The notes beneath the pieces are model-generated. The model was not told the DNA's origin. It worked only from the letters and a program-made list of their open reading frames with translations, and made no database searches. Of a stretch of 64,000 bases of DNA, positions 23,938-64,000 are shown in pieces. Every line of letters starts with the position of its first letter. Position 1 is the stretch's first letter. The stretch lies in contig WELA01002782.1 of the NCBI GenBank assembly GCA_009602735.1, forward strand, positions 81,152-145,151, written 5' to 3'. A program made the position numbers and the translations under genes. The DNA is from Mesotaenium endlicherianum. Lineage: Eukaryota.

Positions 23938-23968
<31 letters not shown>

Positions 23969-34100: not shown

Positions 34101-35278
34101 TGACTTAATGTGTGTTATTACTTTTGAACGCATCTAATCCTGAATATTGCAAGAGCGTCCTAGTCCAACATCGTGCACCTGTGGAAGTGAATGTTGACGC
34201 TTACACGTAATTGTCAAATATATACTTACAATTTGATTGGTAGAGGAGACAAAAACATATACATATGGTTTTTTGTTTTATATTTTTTGAGTACGTCATT
34301 GCCACATGACTATTTCTATTTTAATCTATATATATCTTTAGGGAGATTATAAGATATAACATAGTGATGTAACATATAAATAACAAATAGGTATCTTGTC
34401 TTGAATATGTATATTGACATCATATGATGTCACTGTGATGACATCATATGGTGTTGTGAGACTCTTTGAAATCACCAAAAGTTGCATGATTAATAATTTG
34501 CATGCTTTGGAGATACATGTCATTAGTCACACTTTTGTTAAGCAATTGACTCGATGATGGTAGACTACTACACAATCACCAAACGGTCGTCTGCATGTAG
34601 GTGTCCGACAAGGTTACAACGTACGACGTACGAGTCCCAAACAATTAGTCAAATTAAATGACTTGATTGCGTATAATACTAAGCAAACTTGGATACGACT
34701 GAAGTAAAAAAACAAAATGATTGGAGGAGGTGAGTTAAGAGTTTGTATTTAAAGGATGGTGGACCTTCTTATTGGTGGTTTAGACCTTCAAGTCTCTCAA
34801 AAAATTCATTCCAAGTAATGTTGCACACATGTCGTACTATAAGGAGCACATTGAGATACATATTAAGTGTACTGTGCTCTAGCAAACTTAGCAAAGTAGA
34901 ATCTAGCGGACGTATCAAACTAAGGGTATTAATGTACGGCGTAATCTTGATATCCAATTTGTCTCCTACATAACACTTTTTACATAGGTGCCCTAGCAAG
35001 TATCTTGAAGTACTCAGCGCTTTATGTTGACAAGTATATATTTACTTGCACGGTCATTGTGAATGCAACTCTCACAAGTACCTCTTCTATCTTGGGTTTG
35101 CATCTTTGTCAATTCATACAGGTTATATTGAATACATTGCAAAAGTCTTCTTAGAACTAGTCAATTTCTTATATTGCTACAGTAATCTACATTTATTAAG
35201 GAAGCTTACAAAAACGTCGACTATAAAAAACTCATTGACATTTGATCATTTTTTGCATTCTTTGATTTTCACTAAGAA

Positions 35279-36423
35279 TGTCGTGCGTTACGAGGTCGAG
35301 TGCGCAACATAGGTATAAGCAACACATCATAAGCAAGTAGGCTTTGCTGCAATGAAGTCTATAATACATGTGGCTTTATAGCCAAAAAGGGAGTCAAGTC
35401 TAAAATGTTTTAATTAAGGAGTGTGTACTCTCCAGAGTGAGCACCTCAAGACTGTTATCTGGTAGGAAAACAACTAATGAAGTTTGGCCCAAAAGATCAC
35501 TAGAAGCACATCATGATCTTCAAGAGGAGTTCCATGCAAGGGATTAAGCTGTGACTTTGCTCACCACTTGTGAAGTTCTTCAAGTGACTGGAAGCCAGGA
35601 GGGCTTGCTCTTCACAAGAGAGTAACTAAGTGGTCCTGAAAACATAACACTTAAAAGTGTAAGCTTTACTGATAATCTCTGTTACTTACAGTTGGCGTAA
35701 TGGGACTTCTAAGAGGATATTCCTCTAGGGACATCTCTAGTACTTATACTCCTCAAAACCCGGCGTCGTATGCGGCGGATCCGATGTATGCGGTCACTCT
35801 AGGAGGCTCTCCAATGTCCACTGATGTGTACAAGGCATGTACTAGCACTCCTATAGGCTAAGCATAATTCAAACCAATCAAAGCAAAGCACGTGGAATAT
35901 GCTATGTGTCTCTCATTGGTGGAGCTTACCTTGGGTGATTCTACCTAGACAGCGCCTCAAAAGTGAATCTGGAACTTGAGGAAGCTTCCTCTAAGAGTAG
36001 GTGATGCAATCACCAAGTTATAGCCTCAATGATGCACTTATACTATGGAAATGCAAGATTAATGTAGTCTAAGGGACTTGCGGATTTGTGCGTACAAAGC
36101 TAGGGGTCCTTGGAGTCACGAATAGCCAACAATGTCACCTTTGGGTACATTGAGTCACAAGTTGGCCATTTGGTGTGATTCCGTTAGGGGCCAAACGGGA
36201 TGCGGACTAGATCGCGCCTATCTCGCTCGATACTTAACCAAATGACGCGAAACCGGTACCGTTTGGAAGATGCTTCGACGCGCTACACTTTGGTGACTTG
36301 GAAATCTAAATAAAATCAACATATAGACGCGTAAGGTCAATGCAAAGTCGGTCTTCCTAGGTTGCTGGTTCACACGAGTGTGTTCGGTTTTGTACGTCAA
36401 CCTCGACTCAATAAATCATGACA
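35279..36423 (-). repeat. Probable 3' LTR of the DNMT-carrying Gypsy (about 1145 bp)
   Basis: Inverted termini TGTCGTG...CATGACA. Lies downstream of the poly-G PPT. The partner LTR is not in the window. Confidence 0.65.
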
Positions 36424-36575
36424 GTTGTTGTACGTTACGAGGTCGAGTGCGCAACATAGGTATAAGCAACACATCATAAGCAAGCAGGCTTTGCTGCAAT
36501 GAAGTCTAGAACACATGTGGCTTTTTAGCCAAAAAGGGAGTCAAGTCTCAAATGTTTTAATTCCCCCCCCAGCTC

Positions 36576-39500
36576 TTAGCCTTTAGCTGATGGGCTGTGT
36601 ACGCTGCCTAAGGCTAGCTCAAAGCAGTCACCGCAAAACCAGTCTCCAGCTGGCACGCGAGCCAGCGGCGGGTCGAGGCAGCTGATGTGGAAGCCGAGAT
36701 TGCAACAGCTGTCGCAGAGCAGCATCTTGGCCTCCTGGCCAGGACTGTGGCAGATCTAGCACGCCCAGTCCTTGGGCGGGCGCGCGTCGCGGGGACGAAT
36801 CTGCAAGTCAAGGTTAGGAAGGTGGCATGGTCCACAGTCCTTCGTGTGGTCCTTGTGAAGACGGCCATCTGCGCCTTCCAGCTCCAGGACTCTGACGCCA
36901 AGACGCGCTTGACGCGCAGGATGACCGGCGAGCTGCTGGTGTCGAGGGTGTTCTTCGTCTGACGTCGCAGGTACACGAAGTCACCTGCGGAAAATTGCAA
37001 CACCCGCGGACGATACGCTCCTCCACGAGTCACGGCATACCTCAGCGTATCGCAATGCTGTGCGAAGCTGAGGTTGTCCATGGCCATGGGCATCAAGCGC
37101 TGGAATAGCTGCGCACTGTAATGAATCAGTTCATTATTTATTTAATTAATTACATGTATAAATACAACACTAAATAAGTACTGTGTCAATATACTCACAT
37201 GTGCGAGTTCATTTACATGAATGTATGTCGATATAATGCGAGTTTACTTACTATATCAAAAGGTCAGCAGGATGACTTTTATATCGTAGTGTAGTTTGCC
37301 GACTTTGATGAAAAGGGCAGCACGATGACTTTTGAATCATAGTATAGTTTGCTGAGATTTATATATCAGTTATGTATAGGATATAATATCAGTAGGTTGA
37401 CATATAGTAAGCTCGCTTAATATTAGTCAGTACACTTAGCTTCAGCACGCTGAGGATAGATATATTCATTCAGATTATTATTGTAGATTGGCACATGTGA
37501 TCGTAGTATATTGAAAGTCGAGAGGTTGACTGAGATTTGGTAAACCGATGGCCTACCAGGGTGGTTAACTCCTGGGTAGGCGGAGCCGTTGTCAGTCAAC
37601 TGAACAATTAGGACATCAGTCAACCGACCAATTAATATGGTCGTTATACCTAGATCCGTGGGTCCCATCTTAACGGGTTTCCCACAAAACGGCGCACCTT
37701 GCGCCGTGGTCAACCAAGTGGTCACTAGGTACATAGCAGGCTGGGATCTCGGGGTCCCACATTCTGGACAATCGGCTTTACAGTCGGATTTCTACTTGCA
37801 AGTCATGTGTGCACTTTTGGGGTTTGTTCTAATGACCAGCCTTTACATTAATTGACATGGCTGCTTTGTCTGTGCTTCAAATGGAACGAACTAGAACTTT
37901 TCAAAAAGGTCTCGTCAAGATGCATCCGATGCTGTTGAGTTTGCTCAATTTGGAGTAGTATTGACAGAGTTATGACCTCTGACATTTTGGGGTCACACAG
38001 CAGACAGATTCCATGGTTTTGCACCTAAGTCAGTGGGATGTGTTTTAGCTACTTTATGGTCATCTGAATGAGAGCGCCTTTGCTATTCAGTCCCTTGATG
38101 TTTGTGTATGTGCTTATACATGCTTGTATGCCTGGTAGGCAAGAGGCCGTGAGTTTCTAAAGGAGAAGCTCTAGTCCTCAAGCTCGCCTCTTTCTTGTGC
38201 CTTGTATTAGTGTGCAACTATGGCACACTACGGTAAGTGAGTCAAGGGTTATAGATGAGTAAACAGAATTCATTATAAGGGCAAAGATCGCTCCCCGATT
38301 TCACACGCTTCCACCTATCTTTGATCTTATATATTTAAACGATACATATTAATCTTGAATAAGCAAGATTCATTACACGCACGCTGCCCGATAAGAACGC
38401 TCCACGTCTCGGGACTGTCCAAGTCCAAGACGTTCTCGGCCACGGTCCTGGCTGCGACAGGCAGGACTGGCTGGCGGCCGTAGAGAAGGAAGTAGGGAGA
38501 GTGCGAGGCCAAGGAGGCCTGCTTATTGAACCTGTACCCCATAGCCAACCACGGGAGGGCGTCGTTCCAGTGGGTGCTGTCGTGGGCAAGGCAATACTTT
38601 CGCAACCCAAGCTTGACGATCTGCACCATGCGCTCTGCAAGGCCGTCAGCCTGAGGAGGTGCGGTGGTTGATCATAGAGCGCTCCAACGGCTTCTGAAAG
38701 CTGCCCTGGAACTCCTTGCCCTGGTTGGTCAGCACCTCAGCGCAGCCCCAAAACGGCTAAGGACCTGATCGAGGAAGGCCTGAGCGATCCCCTCACTGGC
38801 CTTGCTGGGCAAAGGCACAAGCTCAATCCACTTGGACATGTGCTCAATCATGTAGAGGTAGAGGTAGAGGTTGCCTCGGCGAGACTTGGGCAGCTCCCCA
38901 GCCAAGTCAAGCGACCACTTGTAGAACAGCCCCTGAATAGGGAGGGGGCTGAGAGCGACGGTGCGGGCTATGAAGCTCGAGCGCACACGGTCGCAGAGAG
39001 TGCAGCTGCTGACAACGTCGGCGACGACCTTAGTCATGCCAGACCACCAGTACTCGGCGTGACAAAGGCTGAGCGTGCGCTTGACACCGAAGTGTTCCAG
39101 TGCCTCGTGCACACGGCGCACCAGCTGGCTGCGTATAGCAGGCTCAGGAACCACCAGGACGGAGCCGTCCGCCATCACTCGGCGCACGCACCCCTCCATG
39201 AAGACGAAGTCGCGGCTGCGCTTGAGGACGCGCTCGCGCTCCCTCGGGGTGACGCCTGGAGCCATCACCTTAGAGGTGACATAATGCAACACTAAGGCGT
39301 CCTCCCAAACATCATCGGGCCCCCGCTGCCAGCTGTCCTGCTCCTCTGCTGCTGCCAATGCCAAGCGCCGCGTGTTGACAGTCACTATGGCCCGGCTCGT
39401 GAGCCCTGCGGGCCGCACCTTGCTGTCCACAGTGAAGGCCAGGAATGCCGCTGTGTGCCACACCACAGGCTCATCCTCGTCATGGCGCGCCATACTCAGG

Positions 39501-40871
39501 TCCCTCGACGATAGAAGAGGGTTACGGCTGAGGCCGTCGGCGTCCATGTTGGTGGACCCAGAGCGGTGATGCACGTCAAAGGTGTACTCCTGCAAAATGA
39601 GCGCCCATCGTACGTACTTGCCTGTCAGGCGCTCCGACGTCATGAGCCACTTGAGTGGCTGATGGTCGGTGACTAGGCGGAAGTGGGTGCCGTAGAGGTA
39701 ATGCCTGAAGTGCACGATCGCTCAGACTGCGACCAGGCACTCCCCCTCGTAAGAGCCGTAGTTGCTCTCGGCGCGGTTGTTACGGCGGCTAGCGTAGGCC
39801 ACCACGTGCTTGAAGCCCTCATGCTCCTGCACCAGCACAGCGTCCAACCTTGCCTGCGACCAATCGGTGAGGAGGATGAAGGGCTTCTTGTAGTCGGGCC
39901 GCCGCAGCACCGGTGCGCTCACCAAGAGCTCCTTGAGCTTGTCAAACGCCGTCTGCTGCTTTGGCCCCCACACATAAGCAACACCCTTCTGCAACAAGTC
40001 GTTGAGCGGCTTGGCCAGCTCGCTGAACCCTGGCATGAAGCGCCGATAGTAGTTGGCAATGCCAAGGAAGGCCCTCAGCTGCGAGAAATCCGTGGGAGGC
40101 GGAATGCCCGTGATGGCTGAGATCTTGGCCAGTTGCGGCGCCAGACCGCTCGAAGAGAGCAGATGCCCGAGGTAATCCACCTCTCGAGTCCCAAACATAC
40201 ACTTGCCGGGATGGCACTTGAACCCCGCGGCCTCCAAGTGCTCCAACATGGCAGTGATGTGGGCCACGTGCTCCTCAAACGTCTCACTGAAGACGAGCAC
40301 GTCATCGATGTAGCACTAGGCGAAGGGAAGCCCTGACAGCTCCTTATCCATGACCCTCTGAAAGGTGGCCGGCGCGTTCTTCAACCCAAAAGGCATTACA
40401 CCCACTCGTAGAGGCGTTGTGCCCCCCAGAACGCCATTTTATGCTGATCCTCCTCGGCGATGGGAATCTGGTTGAAGCCCTGGCGCAGGTCCAGCACTAG
40501 AACCAAGTGCAGGTGCCAATGTCATCAAAGATCTCGTTTGGCGTCGGCATAGGGTACCTGTCTTGCTCAATCACCTCGTTCAGCCGACGATAGTCACCGC
40601 ACATCCTCTCCTCAAACCAGTTGCCCGAGGCATCCTTCTTGGCTGGCATGACCGTGGGCGCGGCGTAGCAAGACGATGACTCCCTGATGAGCCAATTGTC
40701 CTCCAGCTTGCCTGTCTGTGCGCCGATCAGACCATCCTCAAAGTGACTGTAATGATATCTCTTGAGGAAGATAGGCTCCTTGGACGTGAGAGAGATCCGC
40801 ATGGGATCCCCCTTATAGCGCCCGAGGTCGTGCATGCCGCTGGCGAAGCTGACGTTTCGTCTCCCATCCAT
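36576..40871 (-). pseudogene. Gypsy pol: RT, RNaseH, integrase and C-terminal PHD finger, with frameshifts and stops; split by a solo LTR
   Basis: RMCGDYRRLN, MPFGLKNAPATFQR, YIDDVLV, RAFLGIANYYRRF, LTDWS, LVTDHQPLKWL, integrase HHCC (HEALEHFG..CTLC), WSLDLAG and a PHD C4HC3 pattern. Confidence 0.9.
37117..38377 (+). mobile_element. Solo LTR (1261 bp) inserted in the integrase
   Basis: Termini TGTAATGAATC...GATTCATTACA. Perfect 5-bp TSD CGCAC (37112-37116 and 38378-38382). The integrase frame continues on both sides. Strand inferred from motifs shared with other LTRs in the window. Confidence 0.9.
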
Positions 40872-41369
40872 CAGTGTCGTCAGCTGTGCCGCCTGGGCGT
40901 CAGTGAGAGTCCCCCCCAGCTTCTATGTGGGCGCAGCTAGTGAGGGCTCCTGCCTTGCAGCCGGCTCCTCCTGCCCTGCTGCTGGCGTAAGCTGTGGCGC
41001 TGCGGGTGTCACCTGCCTTGCAGCTGTCTATGCTTGGCCTGCGATGGGTGCCTCCTCCTTGGCAGCTGCTGCCAGCTGCATTGCACCGCCTGCCTGAGGT
41101 TGCGAGTGAGGAAAAAGAAATGGCGACCGAAACTCCCTGGGTCGTTGTGAGGCCTCCTCTCTCTTGCGTCCCCCACCAAGCGATCCAAAATTGTCACGGG
41201 CCGGCGGCGGGGACCAAAGGCGTGCGCGAGCTTGCGGGGCAGGTCTTTCGCGCTAAGAAGGCCACGCAATCTCGGGCGGAGCCTAGCCGTCATTGTCAGG
41301 GGAGTCCTCGTCCATGGGGATAGCAGGCCGAGGCAGCTCTGGGTGGCGTGCCTCCGCGTAAAGAGGTGC

Positions 41370-42330
41370 CAAGGCCTGTGTCTGAAGCAGGATCCATGTG
41401 AGGACGTGGGCGTCAATCGCCTGTCCCAGGAGGCGAATGCGGTTCACCTCTGTGAGACCGTTCAGCTCCGTGAGGTGCGGCGAGAAGCCCATGTCGCGTT
41501 CCATCTCCGTCGGGCGGGGCCTATCGAACATGCCAGTCTCTGGGTCAATGACCATCCCGCGCTGAGCGCCCAGAAAGGCATTGCTGTCGTAGCGGCTGAC
41601 AAAGGTGGGGAGCGCTGGAGTAACGTCGTGAAGGACCTCGCACTGCGCCTGCGAGGGATGTGGCAGCACCGTCACCCGCTGCGCCAGCCGAGGGGCATCG
41701 AGGATGGAGTCGACGTTGCGCGTGTGGCGCGGATGGGCGGCTGCCAAAGCCTCAAGCGTGCCCGGCATTGCCAGGTTGGTGAAGTAGGCGTGGACGCGAT
41801 GCGCAAACGAGCCAATCTGGGCAGCGTCGATGACGGCCTCCCGACCGACGTAGCTGCTGGAGAGGGCAAAGTCAGCACTGACGTTGGGCCTGTGGTTGTG
41901 GCGTGCGTCCACGTTCTCCAGGACCCATGCAAGAGTGTGCGGCGGCTGACGATCCTCCAGCATGTTGAGGACGCGGAGCGGGTGCCAGAAGAGGGTCACT
42001 GAGTGCTCTGCCACGCCCAGCTCTGGAAAATTCTTGGCACTCCCAACCTGCAATGATGAGATCGTTGGGCCCAAGGCGAGTGACATGCTCGACAGTAATG
42101 TCGCGGATGTCCATGGGCCAGTCCGTCTGTGCGCGGCGGAAGGCGTGCGCGAGAAGGAGGTCTGGGAACCGCTTGTGGCACAGAGCCATTTGCCGACGGG
42201 CCACCTGCTGAGCCTCGGGATCGGGGTCCACATAGACGTAGCGGCGTACGGGAATGTCGGCCTGCAAGGTTGCTAGCAGCCCTGTGGCAAACCCGGCAAA
42301 GAGCTCAACGAGCACGATGCCGCCGGGCCG
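41370..42330 (-). pseudogene. DNMT3-like C5 cytosine DNA methyltransferase domain within the retrotransposon pol
   Basis: Motif I VELFAG, II YVDPD, III DIRDI, IV IAGWECQEFSRAG, VI VLENV, VIII FAHRVHAYFTNL, IX PTEMERDMGF, X RLLGQAID. One frameshift near 41992 joins ORFs 41872-42627 and 41283-42233. Confidence 0.9.
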
Positions 42331-45300
42331 CTCGTTGAGCGCGTCGGCACAGATGGGTGTCGGCAGCGGGCGGCACCCCATGGCAAGATTTCCAGGCTGC
42401 GCGGAAGGCGGATAGGTGCGCTCGAAACTGTGCTGATGTGGCGCCATGCGGAGTGCAGCCATGGCGCGCTCGGCGTAGTCGCGCGTGAGACCTGGGATGC
42501 GGTCCGCAATGGGCAGGGGACGCCCCTCCCGAGCGTGGGCCTGATATGAACGCCACCTCATGTGGGCGTCTTGCAAGGCCTCCGGCGGCACAGCGCGGGC
42601 CTGACGTCGGGCCAGGTGAATGCACAATTGCTGCCATCAGCCACGCTGAGCGAGGTCGTCCTGGTGCAAGGCTGCATGGGCCAACTGGTCCAGAACGGAC
42701 CGCTGAGGCAGATAGGGATGCGGATCAAAGTAGGCGCGCTGGCGCTCACGCATGGCCTCAGCGGGGACTGTGCCGACAGATCGTTTGGGGCTGTCAACCA
42801 CCTGCCGTGGCCAAACGAGCTGGCGCGGGGCCAGTTGGACTCGCGGGCGGGACTGCCCTCGCAGAGCTAGCTCGACGTGGGGATGCCGGAGATGCGGCAT
42901 GAGCTCTGCTCGCGTGGCTGCTGTAAACGGGTGGCGAGGGAGCGGCCCGCTCCTGTGCGCGCCACCTTCTGAGGAGGCAATCCCGAGGGGCCGTCGCCTG
43001 CGGTGTGGCTGCGTGGGACGCCGGCGCGTCGAGCCACAGGGTCGAGGTACAGGGCGTAATGCGCCTGTAAGGAGGAATGCGTGTCGTCGCAGTCTGGGAG
43101 TGGGCAAAAAGGTGGCGTGCCTCCTCGCTCCCAAGTGCCGTCGTACGGGGGCGTGCGCTCCCTGTCATCATATGGCGGCGTGATGGAGCAGACCCGCGGC
43201 TCGCGAAGAGGAGTGACCTCTCGTGCCTCACGCAGGGCCGTGAGCAACCGTGAGCGCCTCGTCTCGCGGAGAGGAGTGGTCTCTCGGGCAGGCTCAATGG
43301 TCGGCCTGGTGCGGTGGGCGTATGGCAGGGGCGGATGGGCGCAAGTAGCCGGGCCTGCGCGCGGCGGATCGCGGATGCTGCTCCGAGGCTCCAGCTGGCA
43401 CACGAGAGGTGTGGCAATGCTGGAAGAAGCAGCTGTCGCGTGGGCGGAGGCAAACAAGTGCCTGACGCGGCACTCGTTGCTCGTGGAGCAGTCATGGGAC
43501 ACGGGACGGCCTGGGTCCAGCTGCGGCGGCACGGGCCCAGCTGGACCGGGTCGCGGCCTCTTGCGGCAGGTTGTTGAAGCGGGGCGGGCCCGTAGGCGTG
43601 CGTCGAACGTGCGTCGTGGGCGTAGGTGGCCGAGCCTCCTCTGATGGCTGCGCGAGGTACTCCTCCGCAGACTCCTCGAGAAGCTGCTCCCACTGCTCCT
43701 CCTCCTCCTCGTTGCTGTCAAGGGTTAGGTTGTCGGACTCGCCAGGATAGGCGGCCTGCCGCATGGCCTCCTTCTCTGATGCTGTGATGCGTGGCCAGGA
43801 GTCGCCAGTCTGGTGCAATGCGCGCTGGGATGGCGGCTGAGAGTCCATACTGTACTGGATGGCCACGCAAACGGGTACGTCGTAGCGTACACGGACGTTT
43901 TTCCTTGCTGAAGGTCCGCTGCAAGACGCCGAGGCCGTGGCATCGGTGGGGGTAGCCACCGCTAAGTCACGAGCAAGGACTACGGCAGCGACGGCGGTAC
44001 GGGCAACGGCAAGAGCCTCGGTGGCATCCTCCGCCATTTGCCGCACCGTGGCGCGGTGCGCTACGCAGATGCGTATTTGCTCCCGTGCCTGGGCTGCCAC
44101 GACATCTGCCTGCTCCTGTGGTGTGAGGTGGAGCTCTGCGCTAGGCAGGTCCGGCTCCTCATCCTACAGCTCAAGCAAGTCCTCTCCCACAGAGATCTCC
44201 TCGTCCTTGGGCCCTCCCTTATCAGTCTGGACTACTGGCCGGCCGCCGCCCAACCCCATGAAGCCGTAGAGAGCGGACACTGCTGGGCGGCAATCGACGA
44301 TGTCGAGGGGCAAGGACGCCGTGCGCGTCCCTCCTGACTGTCAGTCAGTTCAATAGAAGACATGCTCCGCCCAGTTGCAGGGTCACGCCGTACGCTTGTA
44401 CGCTTAGTTCGACTAATACGCTAGTTCGCTTGAATCGGTGTTCAAAAAAATGGACTAGTTCGCTTAATACGCTTAGTACGCTAACGTCACAACGGTGTCG
44501 ACGTCCAGTACTACGGCGTCGACGTTTCATGATGGTCGCACGTGTAAAATAACCACGTCGTGTCAGACTGTTTATTTCGTTCAAAATGGCAAGGTTTTTT
44601 TTCATGCAATTTTGGACTTTTCTCTGCCCGCTTTGCAGCTACAAGTCGCAAAAAGTATTTGTAACTTCGTCTAGTACAGGACGTCGGCAAGCGGGTTTGA
44701 ACACCAGCCACCGGGTGCAGGGATAGAACAATACCCAACGTGCCATGCATGTTTCACTGTCGTATATCTATCGGGGTTGTTTATGAAGCTTATGAGTCAG
44801 ATATGTTGCAGAAATAAATGGTGGAAAACAATTTCAAAAAAATTAAATTGCTGTTGGCTTCGGGCGCCAGTCGACAGTCTTGAACCCCCGCCACCGGTTG
44901 TAGGGAACGACGCCTTACCAATGTTTCATATTATGCAATCTATGTTGAAAGGGTTTCGCGTTTGTCTAATATTGATTGTTTTAATTTACTGCTTTTCCAT
45001 GTACAATCCGACGACATCAATCATGCCAAAGTTGGGAGGGCCGCTTAGCAGAGCTGTTTTTTGTACTTCCTAACTTATTTCTTAGTTGAATTAGGACATT
45101 TAGGAGTATCATTACTTCTTAATCGAGTAGAAGAAGCTTCAATGAAGAGGTATAGATATGATTCAATTTTTTAGCAAGCATGTGTAAGAAGTAAGAAGTT
45201 CTTATAAATGCCACATTTAAGAATGACTGAACTTCGACTTAGAATAATTTTCATACGCACCAACACTGGAAGAACCGCTTAGCAGAGCATGGTTTTTTGT

Positions 45301-45616
45301 ACTTTCTAACTAGCTGATTGATTCAACAAAATAGCTTAGGAGTATCATTGCTTCTTATACCAGTAAAATAAGCTTCAATGAAGACAAACATGATTTAAGT
45401 CATAATGCACCAAATATTAATTTCAAATGTATTCATTTTCTCAACTTCCATTCTCTTTAATATGTACATGCTACCTTTAGAACATACAAGTTAGCTGACC
45501 GACACATCTAGTAACCAATTGCTCTTTGCCTTCTTCTTCCTAGAGCTGAAACACTAGGTCGCTCCTCCAACTCCTCTTCCTCTACCTCCTCTTCCTCTAC
45601 CTCCATCTCCTCTTCC

Positions 45617-47904
45617 TCACTCAACGAGGCATGCATGGCAAGATTGAGACCCTCCTGTTTCTAAGAACTCCGCTTCTTCAACCCATGGAGTGACGCCGAC
45701 ACTTGGTCCAAGGAAGTCCAAACTCTTATCCTGAAGTCTCAACATAGAATGCACATACACTAACTTCTTTGCTCTAGTAGGGAGCAGCCTATTGCGAAGT
45801 GGACTATGAACAAACCCATACTCAGACCAATTTCTCTCACATGCAGCTGCTGAACCAGGTTGCGACAATATTCTCATAGCAAGAAGTTGAAGATTAGGAC
45901 AATGACTTCCATATGTTCCCCACCACTTGTGAGCAGGCATCATGGTCTTATTAGCCTTGCAAACATCATCGCCAAAAATGTCACCGCTCCGCCGGTAGAG
46001 CGCCAACTCTCGATCCACCAACGCTCGATCAAGCACACTTCCTCCAACAAGGGTGTTCCGCACGTTGGACCAATCAGTTAGTAGACACTTCTCAACTGCC
46101 CAAGACTCATGGTCTTGGAACTCGGGGTCCAGATAGTAGCCTGTAGCCAAACAAAGTCAAGAAGCAAACTCAATATATGACAACACAATGCACTTCACCA
46201 AAAAGAGAGCAGTAACAATAGCAAGCACAATAACAAGAACAATGACCAACACACAATAACAAGCATGCAAGAGAACAACAGCCGCCGAGCAAGAAAGGTG
46301 AGCAACGTCAAAATAGACTTTTACCCGCAGAATGTAGGGGGCTGTGAAGCTAGTCCCAGCGAGCCTTCACGTCCTTCTTAACTTGGGTTCTTTGTGCCGG
46401 TTTGAGTCCTTCAACCTCAAGCACATGCTCTTTAATGGCACTCATGCGAGCCCAGATCTTCCCCAGAGAAGGNCAGAGAAGGTTGTAGAGAGTCGACTAG
46501 TCGAAGGAGAACTACAATCGGCTCACACACGTCTACCCATACCTTCACTCGCTCCCAATGTTCATCGTCACGAACTAGGTCTCTAATGTTTGTAGCCTCG
46601 CCTAAACAACCATTCATGGCCGCCCACTCAAGCCACCTACTGTCAAACACCATAGCTTGTAAGGTATCCCTCACAACGATGAGTCTTTGCAAGCAAAAGA
46701 AGTTACTAACAAACCTTGTGGGTCTTGGCTTCAACAACTCTAGTTTATTATTTAGCCTGGCCCCATGCTCACGTTAAAGAGCGTGAGGCATGTGGTGATT
46801 TGCAACAAATTGGACCAAGTGCTTGAAGCTATCGATTATGCCCTCTAGCTCTTTTATCTTTCCTAGGTCTTTCAACAGCAGGTCCAAATTATGAGCAGCA
46901 CAAGGCGTCCAATCTATGTGCGGGTGCTTCTTGCGAACCACATTACAACCAGCTACAATGTTAGCTGCAGAGTCTGTGCAAAGCTGTACGACATGATCAG
47001 CCCCTACCTTCTCCACGGCCTCAAGCAGGTGATTACCAATGTAATCACCCGTCTTCCTAGCACCCTCAATGTTGATAGCATCCATGAACATCTAAGTGCC
47101 TCCCACAACCATAAGCACGTTAAAAAGAGGATGCCCGCATGGATCGGTCCACCCATCTGCTACAATGCTACAACCCGTCAATGGTAGTCCTTTTTTCTGT
47201 TTCTCCTCCCAAGCTTCTATCTTCAAGACCTCTTTATCTAGTAGGGTACTTCCGAGAGGCTTATCCTTCATAGGGACATACACTGAACCAGTTTCTTGAG
47301 TGTACTTACTGACAGCAACCAACATGTTCCTAAAGAACTCACTGCGAGCAACATTGAATGATGAACCAATACCATAGAAGAAGCGAGCGACAATCTCATG
47401 GACATTCTCAGCATTCATCTTTTGGAACATGTCACTTAGAGAGGTCTGCCCTGTCTTCCTGCCTAAGGAAAGGGACCCCCCAACACTTGCACATGCTGAG
47501 CCACTAGCACCAGTACCCCATTCATGCACACGCTTTCGTGCAGCTTGTATGGTACTCTTCCTACGTCGCATTCCTAATAGAGAACTAGCCATACCCTTGC
47601 TACGGCTAATCATGAGATCTAGAACTTCATCGAGAACCTTCTCACACTGACTAACATCCTTACAGCCTCCCGTGAAATGGCCACGAATCCGCGTGACTTC
47701 ACCAGTAAACTCCCTGGGGCAGTAGTTGCACTTCACCTTTGGATATGAATTCTTGAACTTGGCTTCCACAACGATGGTCACATGGCCCCACTTTGGATCA
47801 GACCTTGCAGCAACTCCTCTAGAGGGCAAACGAGCGGTCAAAGCTCCAGTGAACACCCTCATTCCAGATAGCGTTGCTCCGGACGAAGTGGATGGTTGAG
47901 ACAT
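45617..47904 (-). pseudogene. hAT transposase (BED finger, DUF659-like core, dimerization domain) with premature stops
   Basis: KWGHV..KCNYC..RIRGHF, SIVADGWTD, WTPCAAHNLDLLLKD, RPTRF, HSPLHSA|GYYLDP across a GT-AG intron (46324-46141), WWGTYG..LAMRILSQ..CERNWS. Stops at 47092 and 46774. Confidence 0.9.
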
Positions 47905-47932
47905 GATACGCGTGAAACCTGCAATAACGGAG

Positions 47933-50900
47933 CAGGGTTACGTCGTTCGCTTGTTCGCTTAGTTCGCCAAGTTCGCTAGTTCGCTTAGTTCGATGTTCAA
48001 AAACGAAGGTTAGTTTGCTTAGTGCGCCAAGTCACAACGCCGTTGACGTTACGTAAGCTTGACGTCGACGTTCCTTGGTGGTCGCACGCGCAAAAGTACA
48101 ACGTTGCGGTTGTCACGTTTTTTTGTTCAAATTGGACTTTTTTTTTGGTGGACTGTTATATTTTTTCGGGCTTCCCGGCATGCTTGAAGGATTCAGAAAA
48201 AAGTATCTGCATTTTCTCTATCAAGCCGGCCAATGGCAGGCGGATGTGCACCCCCGCCACCTAGTGTAAGACGCAAAGCCTAACCTCAGTGCCAAATAAG
48301 TATTCTCTCAAATGCGGGGGTGCTGTTAATTAGTGACCTATAATTATTGTCAACCAACCCTTTTTATCCGCTAGCAGAAAATGGGCATTATTGTATGGTA
48401 GTACAAATCACATGTGAGTTATGAGTTACCTAATAGGTATGTGACAATGTGTTCCTTGAATTGTTTATGTCACATGTCTAGAATATGTCGCTCATATGTT
48501 TTGTGAAGAGACTTTCTTTGAACTAATTGAATGAGAAACTATGTCTATCAAGTTCACAATGGCTCTTATTATTTATGTATTAGGCAACAGCAACAAAACC
48601 ACGTGATACACCAAATTATCCTCATCTCATCGTCATAAACTCTACACCATCACACATCATGCAACATTGCAATAAGTTACCAAAAATTGATTCAAAATGT
48701 GTTCACTTCCTCAACTTCCACTTTCTCTATTATGTACATGCTAATTTAGTTATATACATGCAAACTCTATTATGTCGCACCTCCTCTGACAAGGTTCTTA
48801 ATGCACGTGAAGCCACTTGGTGAGTACACACTTGTTGACGGTCCAGGAGCAATAGCTTGAAACTCGGGGTCGAGATAGTAGCCTACAGCAAAAAAAGGTG
48901 CTTACAAATGAGAATATACAGACATAACGCATTTTATTTCCTTCCATACAAGATGCAGAGTTGACAGCATAATGAACATCGAGAAGAAGAAACAGCACCA
49001 GTAACATAAGTAAAAAATGCAACGCAACAAATTTCGAACTATGCTTGCACAAGCCCTCGCAGGCTGCGCATCTGAACAGAAACCCTAAGCCCTCAACCGC
49101 TGACCTCAGCCCTTCCTAAAACTTGAACTTCACTACGCACCAGTAGAGAGACACACGCGGCCCTCCTCAGCTTTCGCCTGGTGCTGGAATCAACCCACTC
49201 TGCACTTCTCTTCCTAAGCTGCACCTGGACCCTAACTAAACCCCTGAACTTGAACCTGACCAAAAGCCCCCCCGCTACCGCGCATGCAGGTGGAGGAGGC
49301 ATGCAGGTGGGAGAGGCAGAAGAGGCAGACAAGCCCAATGCAGCAGCAAGGTTACCTCAGAGGAGGCGAGCCAGGTGGCGGCACCTGACGTGGGGCCGAC
49401 AGACGGCGGAGGCCAACAGATGGCGGAGGCGAGGCCACTGCTGACACTGCGCACCCTTGGCCCCAGCTGGTCTGCGTGTCCGACGACATCTGCACCTGTG
49501 GGCTGGCAAGAGTGGCTGTGGGTGGAGGGGCAGGCTGAGCTGGGGGTTGGTGACGCGCGTGCAATGCGTCTTACTGACAGCTGCGGGCGTACATGTGTTT
49601 TCTGTGGGGGGGAGGGAAGGGGGGTGGGGGTACAGAGAGTGAACACAAACGCTGACAGCATGGCCGAGCTGTTGGAGGAGACAAGACGCTGCAAGAGAGA
49701 GATGGAGAGAGAGAGGGGGGAGAGGGGGNNNNNNNNNNNNNNNNNNNNNNNNNNNNNNNNNNNNNNNNNNNNNNNNNNNNNNNNNNNNNNNNNNNNNNNN
49801 NNNNNNNNNNNNNNNNNNNNNNNNNNNNNNNNNNNNNNNNNNNNNNNNNNNNNNNNNNNNNNNNNNNNNNNNNNNNNNNNNNNNNNNNNNNNNNNNNNNN
49901 NNNNNNNNNNNNNNNNNNNNNNNNNNNNNNNNNNNNNNNNNNNNNNNNNNNNNNNNNNNNNNNNNNNNNNNNNNNNNNNNNNNNNNNNNNNNNNNNNNNN
50001 NNNNNNNNNNNNNNNNNNNNNNNNNNNNNNNNNNNNNNNNNNNNNNNNNNNNNNNNNNNNNNNNNNNNNNNNNNNNNNNNNNNNNNNNNNNNNNNNNNNN
50101 NNNNNNNNNNNNNNNNNNNNNNNNNNNNNNNNNNNNNNNNNNNNNNNNNNNNNNNNNNNNNNNNNNNNNNNNNNNNNNNNNNNNNNNNNNNNNTCCTTCC
50201 CTTGCAGCCTACCTCGCTCCCATCCTCTCCCCCTTCCTCTCCCCCACCCTCTTAGTCATCCTATCCCCATTCTCATTCCCCTCTACAATCCTTGCCCACT
50301 TGGCCTCCCTCCCCCAACTCTTGCTCATTATCCCTCCCTCCAATGCTACCTCCTTCCCTTGCAGCCTCCCTCGCTCTCTTCCTCTCCCTCGCTCTCTTCC
50401 TCCCCCTCTCTCTCGTTCCTTCCCACTCTTGCTCCCTCTCTATCTCTCTACTCCATATTCCTCCCCCCTCCGATGCTTTCCGCTCCCTCCGTCCACCCCT
50501 CGCTCCCTCTCTCGATTCAACCTCTTCCACCCTCCCCCTCCATGCTCTCTTGAATTCCGCACTCCGTCCTCTCTCCCTCCCTTGCTCCCTCCCTCCCTCC
50601 CTTCTTGCCACCTTTTCTTTTTTGCTTCCTCCTCACCTCCCTTCCTTCATCTCTCCCTCCCTTCTCCCCCCATCCTCTCTCTCCCTCTATCCCTTCCCAA
50701 TCTCCCTCCCAATCTCCCTCGCCTCCCGTCGTCCCTCGCTTTTCCTTCTCCCTCGCTCACTCTGCCGCTCCTCTGTCGCTCCCCTAATCCCTGCTTGCTC
50801 CCTCACTCGGTCCCTCCAAACCTTCTTCGTTTTGCTCCGTCCCAACATCCCTCCATCTGTCGCTCCCTGCCTCTTACCCAACCTCCCTCACTCTCGGGTT

Positions 50901-51240
50901 TGGTGGCTACAATTGAATTTGTGCCTCTGCGCAGTGAACCAAAATCCATCAGCAACTACAAGGCTGCAAGCGAGCGTTATTGGTTTTGCAATTTCTTGAA
51001 GTTCCCGTTGTTGCAGCAAAACTGCCACATTGTACTAAAACATTCCAATCGCGTCAATCGATACGTTTTTCACACTCACAAGTGGAAGAACCTCGACGCT
51101 CACGCACATAAAGAACGACGAAACGTTCCTGGACGGCACGCACGAGTGAAACAATTCTCGTCCGCTTAGTTCGGCGAATCGACTCAGTTTGCTTAATAAG
51201 CGTACGAAGGTCGGTCAGTTCGGCGAACGGCATAACCCTG
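47933..51240 (-). mobile_element. Non-autonomous internal-deletion derivative of the same or a closely related hAT family
   Basis: TIRs CAGGGTTACGTCGTTCGC and GCGAACGGCATAACCCTG. TSD TAACGGAG/AAACGGAG (7 of 8 match). Keeps a transposase remnant GYYLDPEFQ (about 48858-48885) and subterminal blocks similar to 44378-44720. Confidence 0.82.
49729..50193. other. Assembly gap (N run) in a GA/CT-rich low-complexity tract
   Basis: Run of n followed by a pyrimidine-rich tract to about 50895. Confidence 1.
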
Positions 51241-51329
51241 AAACGGAGAACAGCAACCAGTAAGAGACAAAAGAATATGCCAGTCAAACAAGCAGAAGAG
51301 CAACAATAGGCAAGCAAGAGAGCAGGAAG

Positions 51330-53678
51330 CCCCAACAAAAGCAAGCAAGGGGTTGGAAGCATACCCCCACTAAAGCCCTAAACAGCAAGCAAAGGCAAGC
51401 TAGCCTGCCCCGACTATAACCCTAAGACAGCAAGCAAGCGACTGGCAGCCAGCCCTGACAAAAGAAAGCAAGGGGCTGACAACCAGCCCCGACAAAACTC
51501 AAAAGCAAGCTCGAGGCTAACAGCCAGCCCCGACAAAACTAAGCAAGGCGCTGGCAGCCCGCCCCCACTAAAACCCTAAACAGCAAGCAAAGGCAAGGCA
51601 ACCCGCCCCGACTAAAACTCTAAGAGAGCAAGCAAGGGGCTGGGGGCTGACAACCAGCCCCGACAAAACTCAAAAGCAAGCTCGAGGCTAACAGCCAGCC
51701 TCGACAAAACTAAGCAAGGCGCTGGCAGCCCGCCCCCACTAAAACCCGAAACAGCAAGCAAAGGCAAGGCAGCCCGCCCCGACTAAAACTCTAAGAGAGC
51801 AAGCAAGGGACTGATAACCAGCCTCGACAAAACTCAAAAGCAAGCTCAGGGCTAACAACCAGCCCCGACAAAACTAAGCAAGGCGCTGGCAGCCCGCCCC
51901 CACTAAAACCCTAAATAGTAAGCAAAGGCAAGCCAGCCCGCCTCGACTAAAACCCTAAGAGAGCACGCAAGGGGCTGACATCCAGCCTCGACAAAACTCA
52001 AAAGCAAGCTCGGGGCTAACAGCCAGTCCCGACAAAACTAAGCAAGGCGCTGGCAGCCTGCCCCCACTAAAACCCTAAACAGCAAGCAAAGGCAAACCAG
52101 CCCGCCCCGACTAAAACCCTAAGACAGCAGGCAAGGGACTGGCAGCCAGCCCTGACAAAAGCAAGCAAGGGGCTGAGAACCAGCCCCGACAAGACTCAAC
52201 AGCAAGCTCGGGGCTAACAGCCAGCCCCACAAAACCAAGCAAGGGGCTAGCAGCTCGCCCTGACAAGAGCATGCAAGGGGCTGCTGCAGCAAAGCAGCGG
52301 CCAGCCCGCCCCGACCAGAGCATGCAAGGGGCGGCTGCAGCACAAAAGACAGACTGCCCCGACCAAAGCACGAGACTAATGCGCAGGGGAGGGGGGGGAG
52401 ACCTGAAACACTTGTTGGAGATTGGTTGCGTGTGGATTGGCGCAAGGCCTGCCGACTCGCTCGTTTTGAAGTTGGGCTGCTTCACACATAAGAGAAGGGA
52501 CAATTTACACACATATAAGATAGACAATAGCACACCAGCAAGGGCACGGTGCTGCAGCCAGACAGCCCCAACCAAAACAAGCAAACGGCAACTGTAGCAC
52601 AGCAGCAGCCAGACAGCATGCCAGACAGCCCCACTCAAAAAAGCAAGGGGCGAGCGGACGCCACTACCAGTAAGAACAGGGCAAAGAGGGAGAAGGGAGA
52701 TAGGGAAGGGCATGGCACCTGATGCACGTGCCGGAAGACGTGTGGCACCAATGAGGGGTGAGTCTGGTAGCTTCTTTTTCACGCCTTCCTCACTGACACA
52801 AGACACACAGAAGCGCATAGCGTCGTCAAAACAGAAGCAGCAACCCCAATCAAGCAAGCAAGGGGCGAGCTGCTGCAGCACCACAGCAGCCAGACAGCAT
52901 GCACCAGACAGCATTCAAAGGGCGGCTGCTGCAGCCAGACAGCAGGTAGGCAGCCTGTCCCACCAACAGCAAATAAGGGGCTGGCAGCCAGTCCCAACAC
53001 AAGCAAGCAAGGGGTTGGCAGCCCCCACATAAGAAAGCAAGGGGCTGGCAGCCAGCCCCGACCACAGCAAACAAGGGGCACGAGAGAGAACGGGGAAGAG
53101 GAAGGAGGTTTAAGGCACCTGTCCACGGGTCAATGTCGCTCACGCGTTAATGGGCACACGTGGGGTAGGCACAAGGGGGGTCTACTCGCTCCTTATTGTC
53201 TTGCCTTGCTTCACAAAAGACAAAAAAGGAGACAAAGCTGTAAAAAGATGCAACAGACAGCTAGCCCTAATCTACAGGACACAAACACGCAAGCACGAGG
53301 GAGAAAGTTCACAATCAGCAGAACAACAAATGTGCAATGGGTGCACAAAAACAGCAGCCCAGTTAGAAAAGGAAGGAAGCAAGAATGAACAACACAAGCA
53401 CAGCAGGTTGCAGATAGAGCTGGTGCAAATGTGGACTAAAATCTCAAAATTGTAAGCAAGGGGATGCCAGCCAGCCCCGTGAAAATCGAGCAAGGGGTTG
53501 GCAGCCCACCCCCACTAAAACCCTGAAACAGCAAGCAAGGGGCTAGCTGCCAGCCTCGACAGAAGCAAGCAAAGGGGCACAACAGCAGCCAGCCCCAATA
53601 AAAACCCTGACTTAACAAGCAAGAGGCTGGCAGCCCACCCCGACTTAAACCCATTGCAAGCAAGGGGCTGGCAGCCAG
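51330..53678. repeat. Minisatellite (about 33-40-bp monomer with palindromic core) including a ~165-bp higher-order repeat
   Basis: Monomer GCAAGCAAGGGGCTGGCAGCCAGCCCC. Higher-order units begin CCCACTAAA(A/G)CCC at about 51365, 51564, 51735, 51899 and 52062. Partly interrupted by unique sequence. Confidence 0.85.
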
Positions 53679-54409
53679 TGAAAGGGGCAGAGTGCCCTAG
53701 TGGAAGCGTAGTGACTCACGAGGAAAGGAACTAGTTGCCATCATACTAGAGAGTGCAGCGGCATATCACTAACAAAACTTAGGAAAATTACTCAACATGT
53801 TGAGTAGCAGGAAACTGCTCACAAATGATGTAGGATGAAAGGCCTTGTCATTACAAACCCGTAGAAATTTACAGAAGTGAAAACTGATAAGAAACAAAGA
53901 AGTTATGCCTATTTATAATTTTCTGCCTAAGTTCTCCTCCCTAGGAGGAAGCTACGGATTTTCCTAAGTGTTCGTCAAATCGTCCCTTCCAGAATATTCG
54001 TGAGTAAGCCAGATCAGTCTAATCTGACGTGTCGGGCCGAATTGACGTCCACATACATGCATCGACATTACTAGAATATTCTATCTTAGACGCGCTAGGC
54101 TAAACCGAAACTTCTAGGTAAATCGACCTAGTCGGCACTCCGCGTCAGCCGAACTTACGTGAAGGTTCGAGTTCATTCTAACGGGCCAGATCGCTCGACG
54201 CTGTCGGTCAATCCGACGGTCGCGCTCACCGCGAATTAAGGACAGTCGTCAACCGACCTCAAAACTAATTAAACTTCGGAAATCCATAACTCTCTCAATA
54301 CTTGACCAAATTCGATGAACTTTATATCAAAATGACCACAAAAATGCACTCTACACTACTATACAATCAAAACATACTTTCATGATACTCAAAAATGCAC
54401 TTCATAAAC

Positions 54410-57400
54410 CTATGACCTTACATCATCCCCCTTCTCAAGATGCGACGTCCTCGACGCATTCTGCAGATAACGTCTCAACTTACTCTTACAATGAGTCAAG
54501 TTGGCCTCTGGCTCCCAAGTGTTGTCGTCCGCATGGTAGCCTTTCCACTTGACCAGATACTCTTGGACAACTCGTTGACCTCGCTTGACTCGTCGATCGC
54601 CGACAATCGCCTCCACTTCATACTCCAATACATCATCGATCTCGACCGGTGGTGGCGGTGTAGGTAGTCGTCCTGGATGTCCTTCATTCGGGTCAACGTA
54701 TGGCCGTAGACAACTGACATGGAACACATCATGGATACGCCATCCTGGAGGAAGTTCCAACTTGTAGGTCACTAGATTCACCTGCTTGAGCACTTCAAAG
54801 GGACCTGTAAACCGTGCCCGCAGTTTCCTCTTGCCTGTGAAAGGTAGGTTCTCTGTGGACAAGAGTACTTTGTCGCCCACTTGGAATGTCACTTCCCTCC
54901 TGTGCTTGTTAGCATGCTTGACCTGCTCTTGTTGTGCCTTCCGAATACACGTCTTCGCCATATCCCAAGTCTTGGCCATCTGCTCCATAAAAGCTTGTGT
55001 AGTAGGAACCTGAGTCTCCTTGGCCTTCTCCAACAAGATGTTCCCTGGATGATATACTTCTCTCCCATAAACCATAGCGAATGGTGACTGCTTGGTCGAT
55101 CCCTGCATGCTGTTGTTGTAGGCAAACTCCAACCCTGGTAGCTTCTTGTCCCACTCTGAAGGGTCTTCCATAGTGAAACTCCTGAGCACCTCTTGCAGAG
55201 TTCTGTTGAGCCTCTCACTCTGCCCATCTGTCTGAGGGTGATAGGAAGTGCTCATACTCAGCTTGGTCCCCATCAAAGTAAACAATGACCGCCAAAAGTT
55301 GCTAGTAAACCTTGGATCTCGATCTGAAACAATCACCTTCGGCAACCCATGTAGCCTAAAAATATGATCAAAGAATAGCCGTGCCACATCTGCTGCCGTA
55401 GAAGTCTCCTTCATGGGAATGAAGTGAGCCATCTTGCTGAGTCTGTCAGACACTACCCATACTGCATCGTGCCCTTGACCACTGACTGGTAACGATGTGA
55501 TGAAGTCCATAGCAATCTGCTCCCAAGGATACTCTGGAATAGGCAGGGGTCGCAATGTACCTCCCTTCTTTTGATTTGGTGTCTTGTTTCTCTGGCACGC
55601 ATCGCAACTCCTGATCCACTCCTCGATGTCCTTGTCCATATTTCTCCAGTAATATTCCCGCTTCAGCACGCTTGCCGTCTTCTCGCTTCCAAAGTGTCCA
55701 GCATATAAGCAGTCATGATGCTCCGTAAGTAGTAAGTCTCGTAGCTCCTTGATGTCAGGTACCACCACTCTCTTGGAATCACCATAATACCATATGCCGT
55801 CCTTCTTCTGCATACTCGAGTTGAACTCAGCTGCTCCACCATCAGCAAACTCTGGGTCCTCCTCATAACCTCTCTGAAGCTTCTCCTTGAAGTCCATATT
55901 CTCCTTGATGACTGAGACAGCTGCAAGGTCACACCTCCTGGATAAAGCGTCTGCAGGGTTGATCTTCCCAGGTAAGTACTCAATCTTGTGGTCGAACTGT
56001 TGCAGAAACTCCATCCACCTTGCCTGTCTTGGTGTCAACGTTGGCTGCGTCATAAACTTCTCCAAGCTCTTGTGGTCGGTCTTGATGAACACCTTCCGGC
56101 CGTCCACATAACATCGCCAAATCCTCAAAGCCTGGATAATAGCCAACATCTCTCGCTCGTGTGCTGCATAGTTCTGCTCCGCAGGACTCAACTTCCTGCT
56201 CTCATATGCCACAGGCTGCAATCCTTTGCCCTGGTCCTGGAGAAGAATGGCTCCCACTGCAAAGTTTGATGCGTCCGTGATGATGGTGAAAGGAAGCTCT
56301 GGACTGGCAATTGCCAACACAGGTGCCTGTGTTAACAGCTCCTTAATCTTCTCGAAGGCTTGCTGCTCCTTGTCACCCCATAGCCACTTCTCCTGCTTCT
56401 TCAACATGTCCGTGAGCGGTGCACACACCTTGGCAAATCCTTCAATGAAACGTCGATAATAATTCGCCATGCCGAGGAAACTCCTGAGTTGATGAATATC
56501 AGCAGGTACCGGCCAATCTCTGACTGCTTGCACCTTCTTCTGCTCCACCTTGACTCCTTCAGCTCCCACTATGTGTCCAAGAAACTCGACCTCCTTGAGA
56601 CAGAAGTCGCACTTGCTCATCTTCCCATACAGCTTTTGATCTCTCAAGACCTCCAACACCTTCCTCAGATGCCCCACATGCTCCTCCAAGGTCTTCGAAT
56701 AGATCAGGATGTCGTCCAAAAATACCACCACAAACTGGTCCAAGTAGGGTCTGAAGATACTATTCATGAGTCCCATGAATGTAGCAGGTGCATTAGTCAA
56801 TCCAAAAGGCATGACTGTGAACTCGAACAAACCATAGCGAGTTCTGAAAGCAGTCTTCTGAACGTCTCCTTCCGCAATCCGTACCTGGTGATAGCCACTC
56901 CTCAAATCGATCTTCGAGAAATACTTCGCCCCGACAAGCCTGTCAATCAACTCGTCCACTCGTGGAAGTGGGTACCTGTTCTTGATGGTGACCTTGTTGA
57001 GTGCCCGGTAGTCGACACACATCCTCATAGTCCCATCCTTCTTCTTCACAAATAAGACTGGCGCTGCAAATGGAGACTCGCTGGGTCGGATGAATCCCTT
57101 CTCCAATAACTCCGTCAGTTGCTTCTTTAACTCATCCAACTCCGCAAACGATTGTCGATAGGCGGGTCTCACTGGTGGCTTGCTCCCTGGTTCCAACTCA
57201 ATCTTGTGCTCCATAGCTCTCTGTGGAGGTAATCCTGTAGGTAGTTCCTCAGGAAACACGCACTTGAACTCCTCCAACAGCGCCTTAATTTGGGCAGGCA
57301 TCTCAGCAGGCTTCTTCTCTTGAGCAGTTGGGCTCTGCTCCTTCTGAGCAAGGGGATCAGACACCACTACTTGCTCCTCCGGCGATGTACATTCGCCCAG

Positions 57401-58093
57401 GCTGTTAGGATTCACGCTTGCTCCATCTGATGACCTGGCCAGGGCCACCGAAACAAGGTACATCTCCTTCACCTGATTCGCCCTGCATAGCTTCTTAACT
57501 TGCAGGCTCGACAGAAGACAGTTACTTGTGGTCGTATCTACCTCCACCTGTTTCGCTGTCTCCATTCGACCATCACGCCCTTGGACTTTCACTTGTCCTG
57601 TGCTCCAGTGCACTTGAGGGTTGGCTTTCCTCAGCCATGGTCGGCCCAATATCACCTCATGGTGACCCAACTCTGCCTGCTCCATAACTTCCTTACTCCG
57701 GTGCCCCGCTACTTCCACGTGAATAGCTTCCGTAGGTGCACCACACTTGAGTCTCTGCCCATTTGCCAAAATTGCCTCCTTAGGCTCATAATGCTTCTGC
57801 ACAGGGACTCGCCACTCTTTCACCAGCTTCTTGTGCACAAAGTTTGCACTTGCGCCACTGTCGACCATACACTTCGCATTGTTGCCGTCGACCACTCCTT
57901 CCACGATGATAGGCTTGTCAACGTCTCGTCCTTTGCTTCTCGGCAGGCTCCTGGGGATAACCTCCTTGTGAGTTCTCGTCTTCACGCCAGTAGACACCCC
58001 AGAACGACTTACTGGCGTCCTCCTTTTTCCTGCTGTTGAGGTTGCTTCGCCTTCACATGACAGTCTCGAGCCAGATGTCCAAGCTTGCCGCAA
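54410..58093 (-). CDS. pol: Chromovirus Pol (PR-RT-RH-IN-chromodomain), in the -1 frame relative to gag
   Basis: [39 protein letters not shown] motif and chromodomain [24 protein letters not shown]. Open for 1227 codons; the stop lies inside the 3' LTR. Confidence 0.96.
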
Positions 58094-63994: not shown

Positions 63995-64000
63995 GTGGCA

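Follow-up and report, generated by a model that had tools for sequence, protein, structure and literature searches.

A decayed Gypsy retrotransposon of Mesotaenium endlicherianum with a DNMT3-like domain that may methylate the element's own new DNA

We report that a 64,000-nucleotide stretch of the Mesotaenium endlicherianum genome (assembly GCA_009602735.1, contig WELA01002782.1, positions 81,152 to 145,151; hereafter the window) contains, on its minus strand, a dead and decayed copy of a Ty3/Gypsy retrotransposon, and that this copy is nearly certain to belong among Gypsy elements with a DNMT3-like C5 cytosine methyltransferase (DNMT) domain. The explanation that we favour, and regard as fairly probable, is that in intact members the DNMT likely methylates the element's own new DNA, which would be inserted as an end-joined circle cut at a palindrome. 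The presence of a DNMT within a Gypsy element had been predicted from the letters of the window, and this part of the earlier description stands; the PHD finger, split protease and permuted ends of the element had been missed.

The domain is intron-less and unpermuted, with eight motifs in canonical order between 42306 and 41412 (Table 1), as the original prediction had stated; of the span 41283 to 42627 given there, about 41370 to 42360 is the domain and the remainder is linker. With a frame change near 41994, motifs I to IV and motifs VI to X lie in different frames, and the copy had rightly been called dead, given this frameshift and four TAG stops in the linker between the DNMT and the reverse transcriptase (RT). 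Its DNMT3-like identity was supported by sequence and fold searches against PDB, DNMT3 being the top sequence match for both the N half (E=8e-6) and the C half (E=0.018). The suggested check with the Pfam DNA_methylase profile gave a weaker answer, namely 14.6 bits for the N half against a cut-off of 22 and no match for the C half, but the intact relative P0003 aligns across both halves at E=5e-51 (tblastn), far beyond chance. A word-index search with the C half returned 0 matches among 5897 candidates. The catalytic Cys of motif IV (GWECQ) and the Glu of motif VI (ENV) are both kept in the window copy, and the RxR of motif VIII is broken at its second Arg, where other copies differ from the window in 98% of the depth. 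Comparison with the majority of other copies (40880-42120; 40 of 110 rows viewed) revealed 22 C-to-T differences, 11 at CHG, 8 at CG and 3 at CHH (CHG enrichment, p=0.005), and this CHG-biased decay fits a host that methylates transposons at CHG. A single read fell on the DNMT region among about 28 million reads from part of three RNA runs, in which the presence of the organism was not established.

The window element has the Gypsy order of protease (PR), RT, RNase H (RH) and integrase (IN), the last of the DDE type, and its domains read PR-DNMT-RT-RH-IN-PHD. Because the two halves of the protease are split by a hAT insertion, we take the original order to have been a gag-like frame, PR, DNMT, RT, RH, IN and PHD. 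The predicted position of the DNMT between protease and RT therefore holds for the original order, with RT downstream, but the protease motif is not adjacent today, lying beyond the hAT composite. Pfam searches found no chromodomain after the integrase of the window element, a PHD finger standing there instead, so it does not qualify as a chromovirus; they likewise found no tyrosine recombinase in the element or its relatives, in which Integrase_H2C2 and rve were matched, so it does not qualify as a DIRS or Ngaro element, although its split repeats resemble theirs. The open frame in the gag position had no Pfam gag match. The linker between PR and DNMT runs to about 640 codons, versus 70-312 aa in 30 relatives, and drew 0 matches from the 201 proteins compared.

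Two possibilities had been raised at the outset, that other copies of the family lack the DNMT segment and that the segment has a target site duplication (TSD) or termini of its own. As to the first, 11,789 pieces of DNA contigs from one organism (A) align to 35000-45000 with every bin covered, so that copies there span the domain; a contig from another (organism B) covers 41436-42504 at about 84%, and no joint removing exactly the whole domain occurred among the joints shown (15 of 332 in one set, 11 in another). Summed contig depth (18,776-35,885 in DNMT bins, 27,022-51,835 in RT/RH bins) is not a copy number. As to the second, no repeat or TSD flanking the segment was found in the window.

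The domain is also widespread. At 50% identity, 311 clusters match the domain profile at E<=1e-30, named members coming from Klebsormidium, Mesostigma and Closterium, and among the best 150 matches PR, RT, RH or IN accompanies the methyltransferase in 109, while it stands alone in 41. That the DNMT is part of Gypsy pol, as predicted, is evident from intact relatives: P0061 (2188 aa) and P0193 (2138 aa) are single open reading frames (ORFs) of the order gag-PR-DNMT-RT-RH-IN with GWECQ, and P0007 holds DNMT-RT-RH-IN in a single ORF. In 69 of these 150 the DNMT instead follows RT/RNase H, adjoining the integrase where the sequence is long enough and often occurring with a PHD finger. This other arrangement, in which RNase H precedes the DNMT and integrase follows it, was seen at L017, L019-L026, L031 and L039, of which L025 is a 3609-codon open frame. 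A tree of 122 DNMT domains (FastTree, midpoint root, no host DNMT3; matches without companion domains and rows with >35% gaps omitted, P0019 being kept) groups the window copy with Closterium proteins in a PR-DNMT-RT clade of WEC forms, named by motif IV, with a support of 0.95. The FPC forms of Klebsormidium and the WPC forms make separate clades, the deep branches are weak, and the group uniting all PR-DNMT forms has a support of 0.84 in this tree without a host DNMT3 outgroup. The RT-RH tree places 60 of 62 DNMT-bearing elements in one clade (0.998, single outgroup; Klebsormidium without RT there). The neighbours in the DNMT tree, together with the CHG-biased decay, point to a streptophyte alga or a bryophyte as the likely host. 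There is no support for a recent phage donor: among the 10 of 99 records listed, phage methyltransferases align with a quarter of P0001, at 26-29% identity. A search of viral contigs gave no match.

That retrotransposons can carry a DNMT was correctly described as known. In KnitGypsy-Dnmt3 of Klebsormidium nitens, as in the window element, Gypsy Pol includes a Dnmt3-like domain that is neither permuted nor interrupted by introns (de Mendoza et al., 2018, PMC5890265), and the K. nitens protein GAQ93363 was recovered by the same domain profile as above. The design is thus already known from one alga, and the ECQ/WEC clade is a separate branch: motif IV reads FPC in the Klebsormidium protein and WEC in the window element, and the two domains, which share 33% identity across 177 columns, belong to different clades. 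A figure legend in the 2018 paper gives KnitGypsy-Dnmt3 DIRS-like repeats (A-coding-B-A-B), matching the layout in relatives here, with no mechanism, and the accessible text of that account is without the PHD finger, palindrome or end mechanism that are present in or proposed for the window element (PMC5890265). SymbioDIRS-Dnmt3 of Symbiodinium resembles the present elements: its Pol includes a Dnmt3 and occurs in two domain orders, its repeats are split, the domain is under purifying selection and CG is not depleted (PMC5890265). It is a DIRS element with a tyrosine recombinase, whereas the window element encodes a protease and a DDE integrase, and relatives of the latter show TSDs of 4 bp. 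The EpiLTRs/DAM-LTRs are likewise Gypsy-like and pair a methyltransferase with a chromatin reader, but the DNMT that they carry groups as sister to DNMT4 and is accompanied by a DAM domain and a chromodomain; the streptophyte Gypsy-DNMT3 is kept apart from them (bioRxiv 10.64898/2026.05.21.726589). In their accessible parts, this 2026 preprint and a 2025 paper (PMC12344493) mention the streptophyte elements only by reference to the 2018 paper. In our literature search, which left subscription papers mostly outside and did not cover the main supplement of the 2018 paper, no account turned up of the ECQ clade, of a PHD finger in such elements, of the second position of the domain or of the internal palindrome.

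Intact members probably encode an active cytosine methyltransferase, judging from the conservation of the domain. The catalytic Cys is kept in 150 of the 150 best matches and the RxR of motif VIII in at least 137, and in an alignment of 67 sequences the columns that hardly vary include Glu-Asn (motif VI) and the two Arg (motif VIII). The residue before the catalytic Cys is Glu in 89 of the 150, Pro in 50 and another in 11, ECQ being the commonest form (89/150), so the WEC motif is a lineage trait and not decay. The family profile is closest to DNMT3A (E=9e-27), with a DRM-type entry at 2e-13 and HhaI at 9e-10, and a predicted model of the intact P0003 domain (pLDDT 96.8) finds its best fold matches in DNMT3A (E=8e-19) and DNMT3B. 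Compared with the human DNMT3A/3B catalytic domain (PDB 6w89, 2qrv), the best sequence and fold match, the Gypsy DNMT is about 22% identical, lacks PWWP and ADD, and has GWECQ in place of GSPCN. The ratio of nonsynonymous to synonymous substitution rates (dN/dS) is below 1, a check that had been suggested: of 78 pairs of relatives, 66 were saturated and omitted, and the other 12, nine of them between WEC domains, give 0.03-0.34. The ratio is somewhat above that of the RT where both were measured. Dnmt3 domains of Symbiodinium retrotransposons methylate CG in yeast (PMC5890265).

How the DNMT is expressed seems to differ between branches. An in-frame TAG or TAA follows the DNMT in 10 of 10 WPC linkers (L001, L002, L003, L005, L007, L011-L014, L016), and CAR follows the stop in nine; at L001-L003 the surroundings match the readthrough context UAG-CAR-YYA. 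From these sequences, the stop of the WPC branch is likely leaky. No such stop occurs in the WEC relatives P0007, P0061 and P0193, and, in the 40 of 110 majority differences covered, three of the four TAG stops in the window linker differ in 89-100% of the depth in other copies, the fourth lying in a poorly covered stretch. With WEC relatives free of the stop and three of the four window stops private, a conserved leaky stop was not adopted for the window's family, for which a single ORF spanning DNMT and RT is likelier.

The ends of the elements are unusual. At its 3' end the window element reads polypurine tract (PPT)-B-A-B, with TG..CA termini meeting at an internal palindrome, and B1 and B2 differ at 7 of 137 nt. 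The full layout, A-coding-B-A-B, is seen at L036, which is complete as A-coding-B-GC-A-B with the TSD AAGG; the rearranged L028 has the TSD CACA. All eight distinct 5' ends in the L036 subfamily begin at A, beside unrelated flank with no B upstream. The palindrome GACAGCTGTC forms the junction at L007, L017, L026 and L036, with a one-base variant at L002, and L017 and L026 have the second architecture. In L002, L007, L036 and the window element, it is B1 and not A that follows the PPT, and because B starts at the PPT, where plus-strand DNA begins, the joint of A with B looks like two ligated complementary DNA (cDNA) ends. Foamy virus offers a parallel, as its integrase cuts the palindromic junction of circles with two long terminal repeats (LTRs) with the loss of two nucleotides (PMC1180852). 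The single cut at a palindrome, with two nucleotides between CA ends and proposed to give both processed ends, would be shared; the palindrome is the end-joined junction itself in the virus but lies inside the repeat in the window element, so that the inserted copy would be permuted.

Circle integration through the internal palindrome appears moderately probable. The RNA would begin in the left A and end about 38 nt into the right A; a weak hint of this RNA end comes from run X15 (three contigs, run kind unknown), where a loose end with poly-T falls at 36388, which is 38 nt into A. Reverse transcription would yield B-A-coding-B-A, and joining of the ends would create the junction of A with B. 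The integrase might then cut CA-NN-TG once, with a stagger that leaves both processed ends, and insert A-coding-B-A-B with a 4-bp TSD. Self-methylation of the new copies is likely: DNMT packaged with Pol would methylate the double-stranded copy, which would arrive marked like host DNA, and the PHD finger would select the chromatin target. At L036 the two ends of A share an 8-nt match, which was considered as a means of self-priming and dropped, having no counterpart in the window.

Several observations count against this combined explanation. The residue preceding the catalytic Cys in the window copy is Glu, not Pro. To our knowledge, Pro at this position is near-universal in active C5 DNA methyltransferases. 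The purifying selection described above is that of relatives outside the window's own family. The element pol shows no CG depletion as a trace of self-methylation, its observed/expected CG ratio being 0.81, versus 0.62 in the neighbouring DNMT-less chromovirus and 0.48 in a host ORF. The Klebsormidium Dnmt3 domain was inactive in yeast, a result its authors call inconclusive (PMC5890265). As to the ends, the window does not reach the 5' end of its element, which leaves the TSD and the left A of this copy out of view; L010 (11768-11880) and L016 (6945-7057) stop at B right after the PPT, without A-B, for which circles with one LTR, linear DNA cut twice or recombination between B repeats once inserted are candidates; of the 18 loci checked, 6 have the attachment-like site, several of the 18 ending too early; and the mirror layout A-B-A-coding-B, although a circle with two such sites could yield it, was not seen in any copy.

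Of the alternatives, the most durable concerns these ends. They could be an ordinary A-B LTR with a duplicated B, or the product of tandem insertion or recombination, the linear DNA having integrated normally; A-B2 does start with TG and end with CA, and the differing 3' layout of L010 and L016 would suit it. We nonetheless think this doubtful, since the PPT adjoins B1 and not A, the left ends have no B before or after A, and the palindrome recurs in distant relatives of both domain orders.

Alternatively, the domain may persist as a module that does not methylate but binds or traps DNA containing cytosine, the change from PC to EC marking a loss of turnover. The replacement of a conserved Pro by Glu in 89 of 150 matches, a variable motif I, the lack of CG depletion and the inactivity of the Klebsormidium domain in yeast (PMC5890265) would all agree with such a module, which we nevertheless judge unlikely: the catalytic Cys is universal among the 150, Glu-Asn and both Arg are nearly invariant, and EC and PC forms are mixed within a 90-tip group with the methyltransferase between RH and IN, which suggests interchangeable loops. 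Quite unlikely, too, is an active enzyme that acts not on cDNA but on the host DNA where the element inserts, guided there by the integrase and PHD finger. The 69 matches in which the DNMT follows RT/RNase H, adjoining the integrase in those long enough and often with a PHD finger, speak for it, as does the undepleted CG content; yet the DNMT precedes RT in the window's clade, and the stop after the DNMT in all ten WPC linkers would tie the DNMT to gag levels, suiting the coating of a packaged copy.

A bolder version of the favoured explanation is a long shot. A large, old green-lineage Gypsy clade might have moved its integrase site from the cDNA ends to the internal palindrome, with two-LTR circles as the normal substrate, and its DNMT3 might methylate these circles, among other places at the CAG/CTG and CG sites within the palindrome, thereby blocking one of two sites during insertion and shielding the intact site in chromosomal copies from the element's own integrase. 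This link between methylase and circle is speculation; if true, the pairing of methylase and integrase would amount to a restriction-modification-like system inside a retrotransposon. Finally, a host DNMT3 retrocopy or other segment landed by chance in this one element, for which the overlong PR-DNMT linker and the weak Pfam score might be cited, is practically excluded by the many copies of organism A and the contig of organism B that span the domain, the 311 clusters and the lack of a flanking repeat, and is refuted by the intact single-ORF relatives.

Table 1. Features of the Gypsy element and its insertions, in window coordinates.
Feature	Position	Strand	Remarks
Open frame upstream of protease, gag position	62744-64000	-	Part of 557-aa frame 62330-64000 continuous with protease; element 5' end beyond window
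Aspartic protease body	62329-62743	-	FDTGAQ 62597-62614; Pfam gag-asp_proteas E=7e-8 to 5.9e-9; 41% identical to P0003 protease
hAT-type composite, 18 kb, splitting protease	44378-62328		Terminal inverted repeat CAGGGT(T/C)ACG; perfect 8-bp TSD CCCAGTTG both sides; hAT Pfam matches
Protease C-terminal tail	44296-44377	-	Resumes P0003 alignment where 62329 piece ends; E=0.6 alone, placed by TSD
PR-DNMT linker, long, frameshifted	42361-44295	-	About 640 codons; multi-copy in DNA contigs
DNMT3-like C5 cytosine methyltransferase domain	41370-42360	-	GWECQ motif IV; frameshift near 41994
DNMT motif I	42292-42306	-	ELFAG
DNMT motif II	42226-42240	-	
DNMT motif III	42097-42111	-	
DNMT motif IV	42034-42048	-	GWECQ
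DNMT motif VI	41910-41918	-	ENV
DNMT motif VIII	41790-41804	-	
DNMT motif IX	41496-41510	-	
DNMT motif X	41412-41432	-	
DNMT-RT linker	40923-41369	-	Frame common to DNMT C half and RT N terminus; four TAG stops in window copy
Reverse transcriptase, broken	40160-40922	-	YIDD 40301-40312; Pfam RVT_1
RNase H	39500-39970	-	Pfam RT_RNaseH, RT_RNaseH_2
DDE integrase, HHCC and core	38383-39150	-	Pfam Integrase_H2C2 E=8e-15, rve E=0.004
Unrelated solo-LTR-like insert in integrase	37117-38377		TGTAATGAATC..GATTCATTACA; 5-bp TSD CGCAC; other copies join across
Integrase tail and PHD finger	36612-37111	-	PHD 36624-36755, Pfam PHD E=2.2e-10; matches P0013, P0015
Polypurine tract G8	36563-36570	-	Directly before B1
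Repeat B1, 137 nt	36426-36562	-	Ends in CA
Internal attachment-like palindrome, decayed	36417-36432	-	CA, 2 nt, TGTCATG; intact form GACAGCTGTC in L007, L017, L026, L036
Segment A, about 1 kb	35416-36423	-	Starts TGTCATG
Repeat B2	35279-35415	-	Start identical to B1 start after PPT; ends CACGACA, the element 3' end

Nested hAT remnants lie in the hAT composite, as do more hAT ends (47933, 51240), tandem arrays rich in GC (near 51300-53600 and 59800-61000) and a near-intact chromovirus at 53679-59377 (gag 58009-59055; pol 54410-58093 with a chromodomain). The LTRs of this chromovirus differ at 3 of 300 positions, compared with 7 of 137 between the B repeats, so it is younger than the DNMT element. 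Elsewhere in the window, 14743-16353 on the plus strand is an RT-RNase H open frame of 536 aa (Pfam RVT_1 E=3.5e-20), DIRS-like by eye, and pieces of intron-rich host genes lie at 359-800, 7200-10700 and 21526-26589, their content including a Kelch repeat, a gene that by eye resembles a pseudouridine synthase, and a BAH exon followed by a low-complexity exon of 1363 codons.

In summary, Gypsy-DNMT3, described from one alga in the literature searched, is a clade that numbers 311 clusters or more; its DNMT sits at either of two positions, the catalytic loop takes three forms, and one branch has a likely leaky stop. The ECQ loop provides a natural test of the need for the motif IV Pro and, if the end layout reflects circle integration, these elements would be a natural case of a route long deemed a dead end for LTR elements. 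Intact natural members make testable the question raised in 2018 of what a transposon gains from a DNMT of its own.

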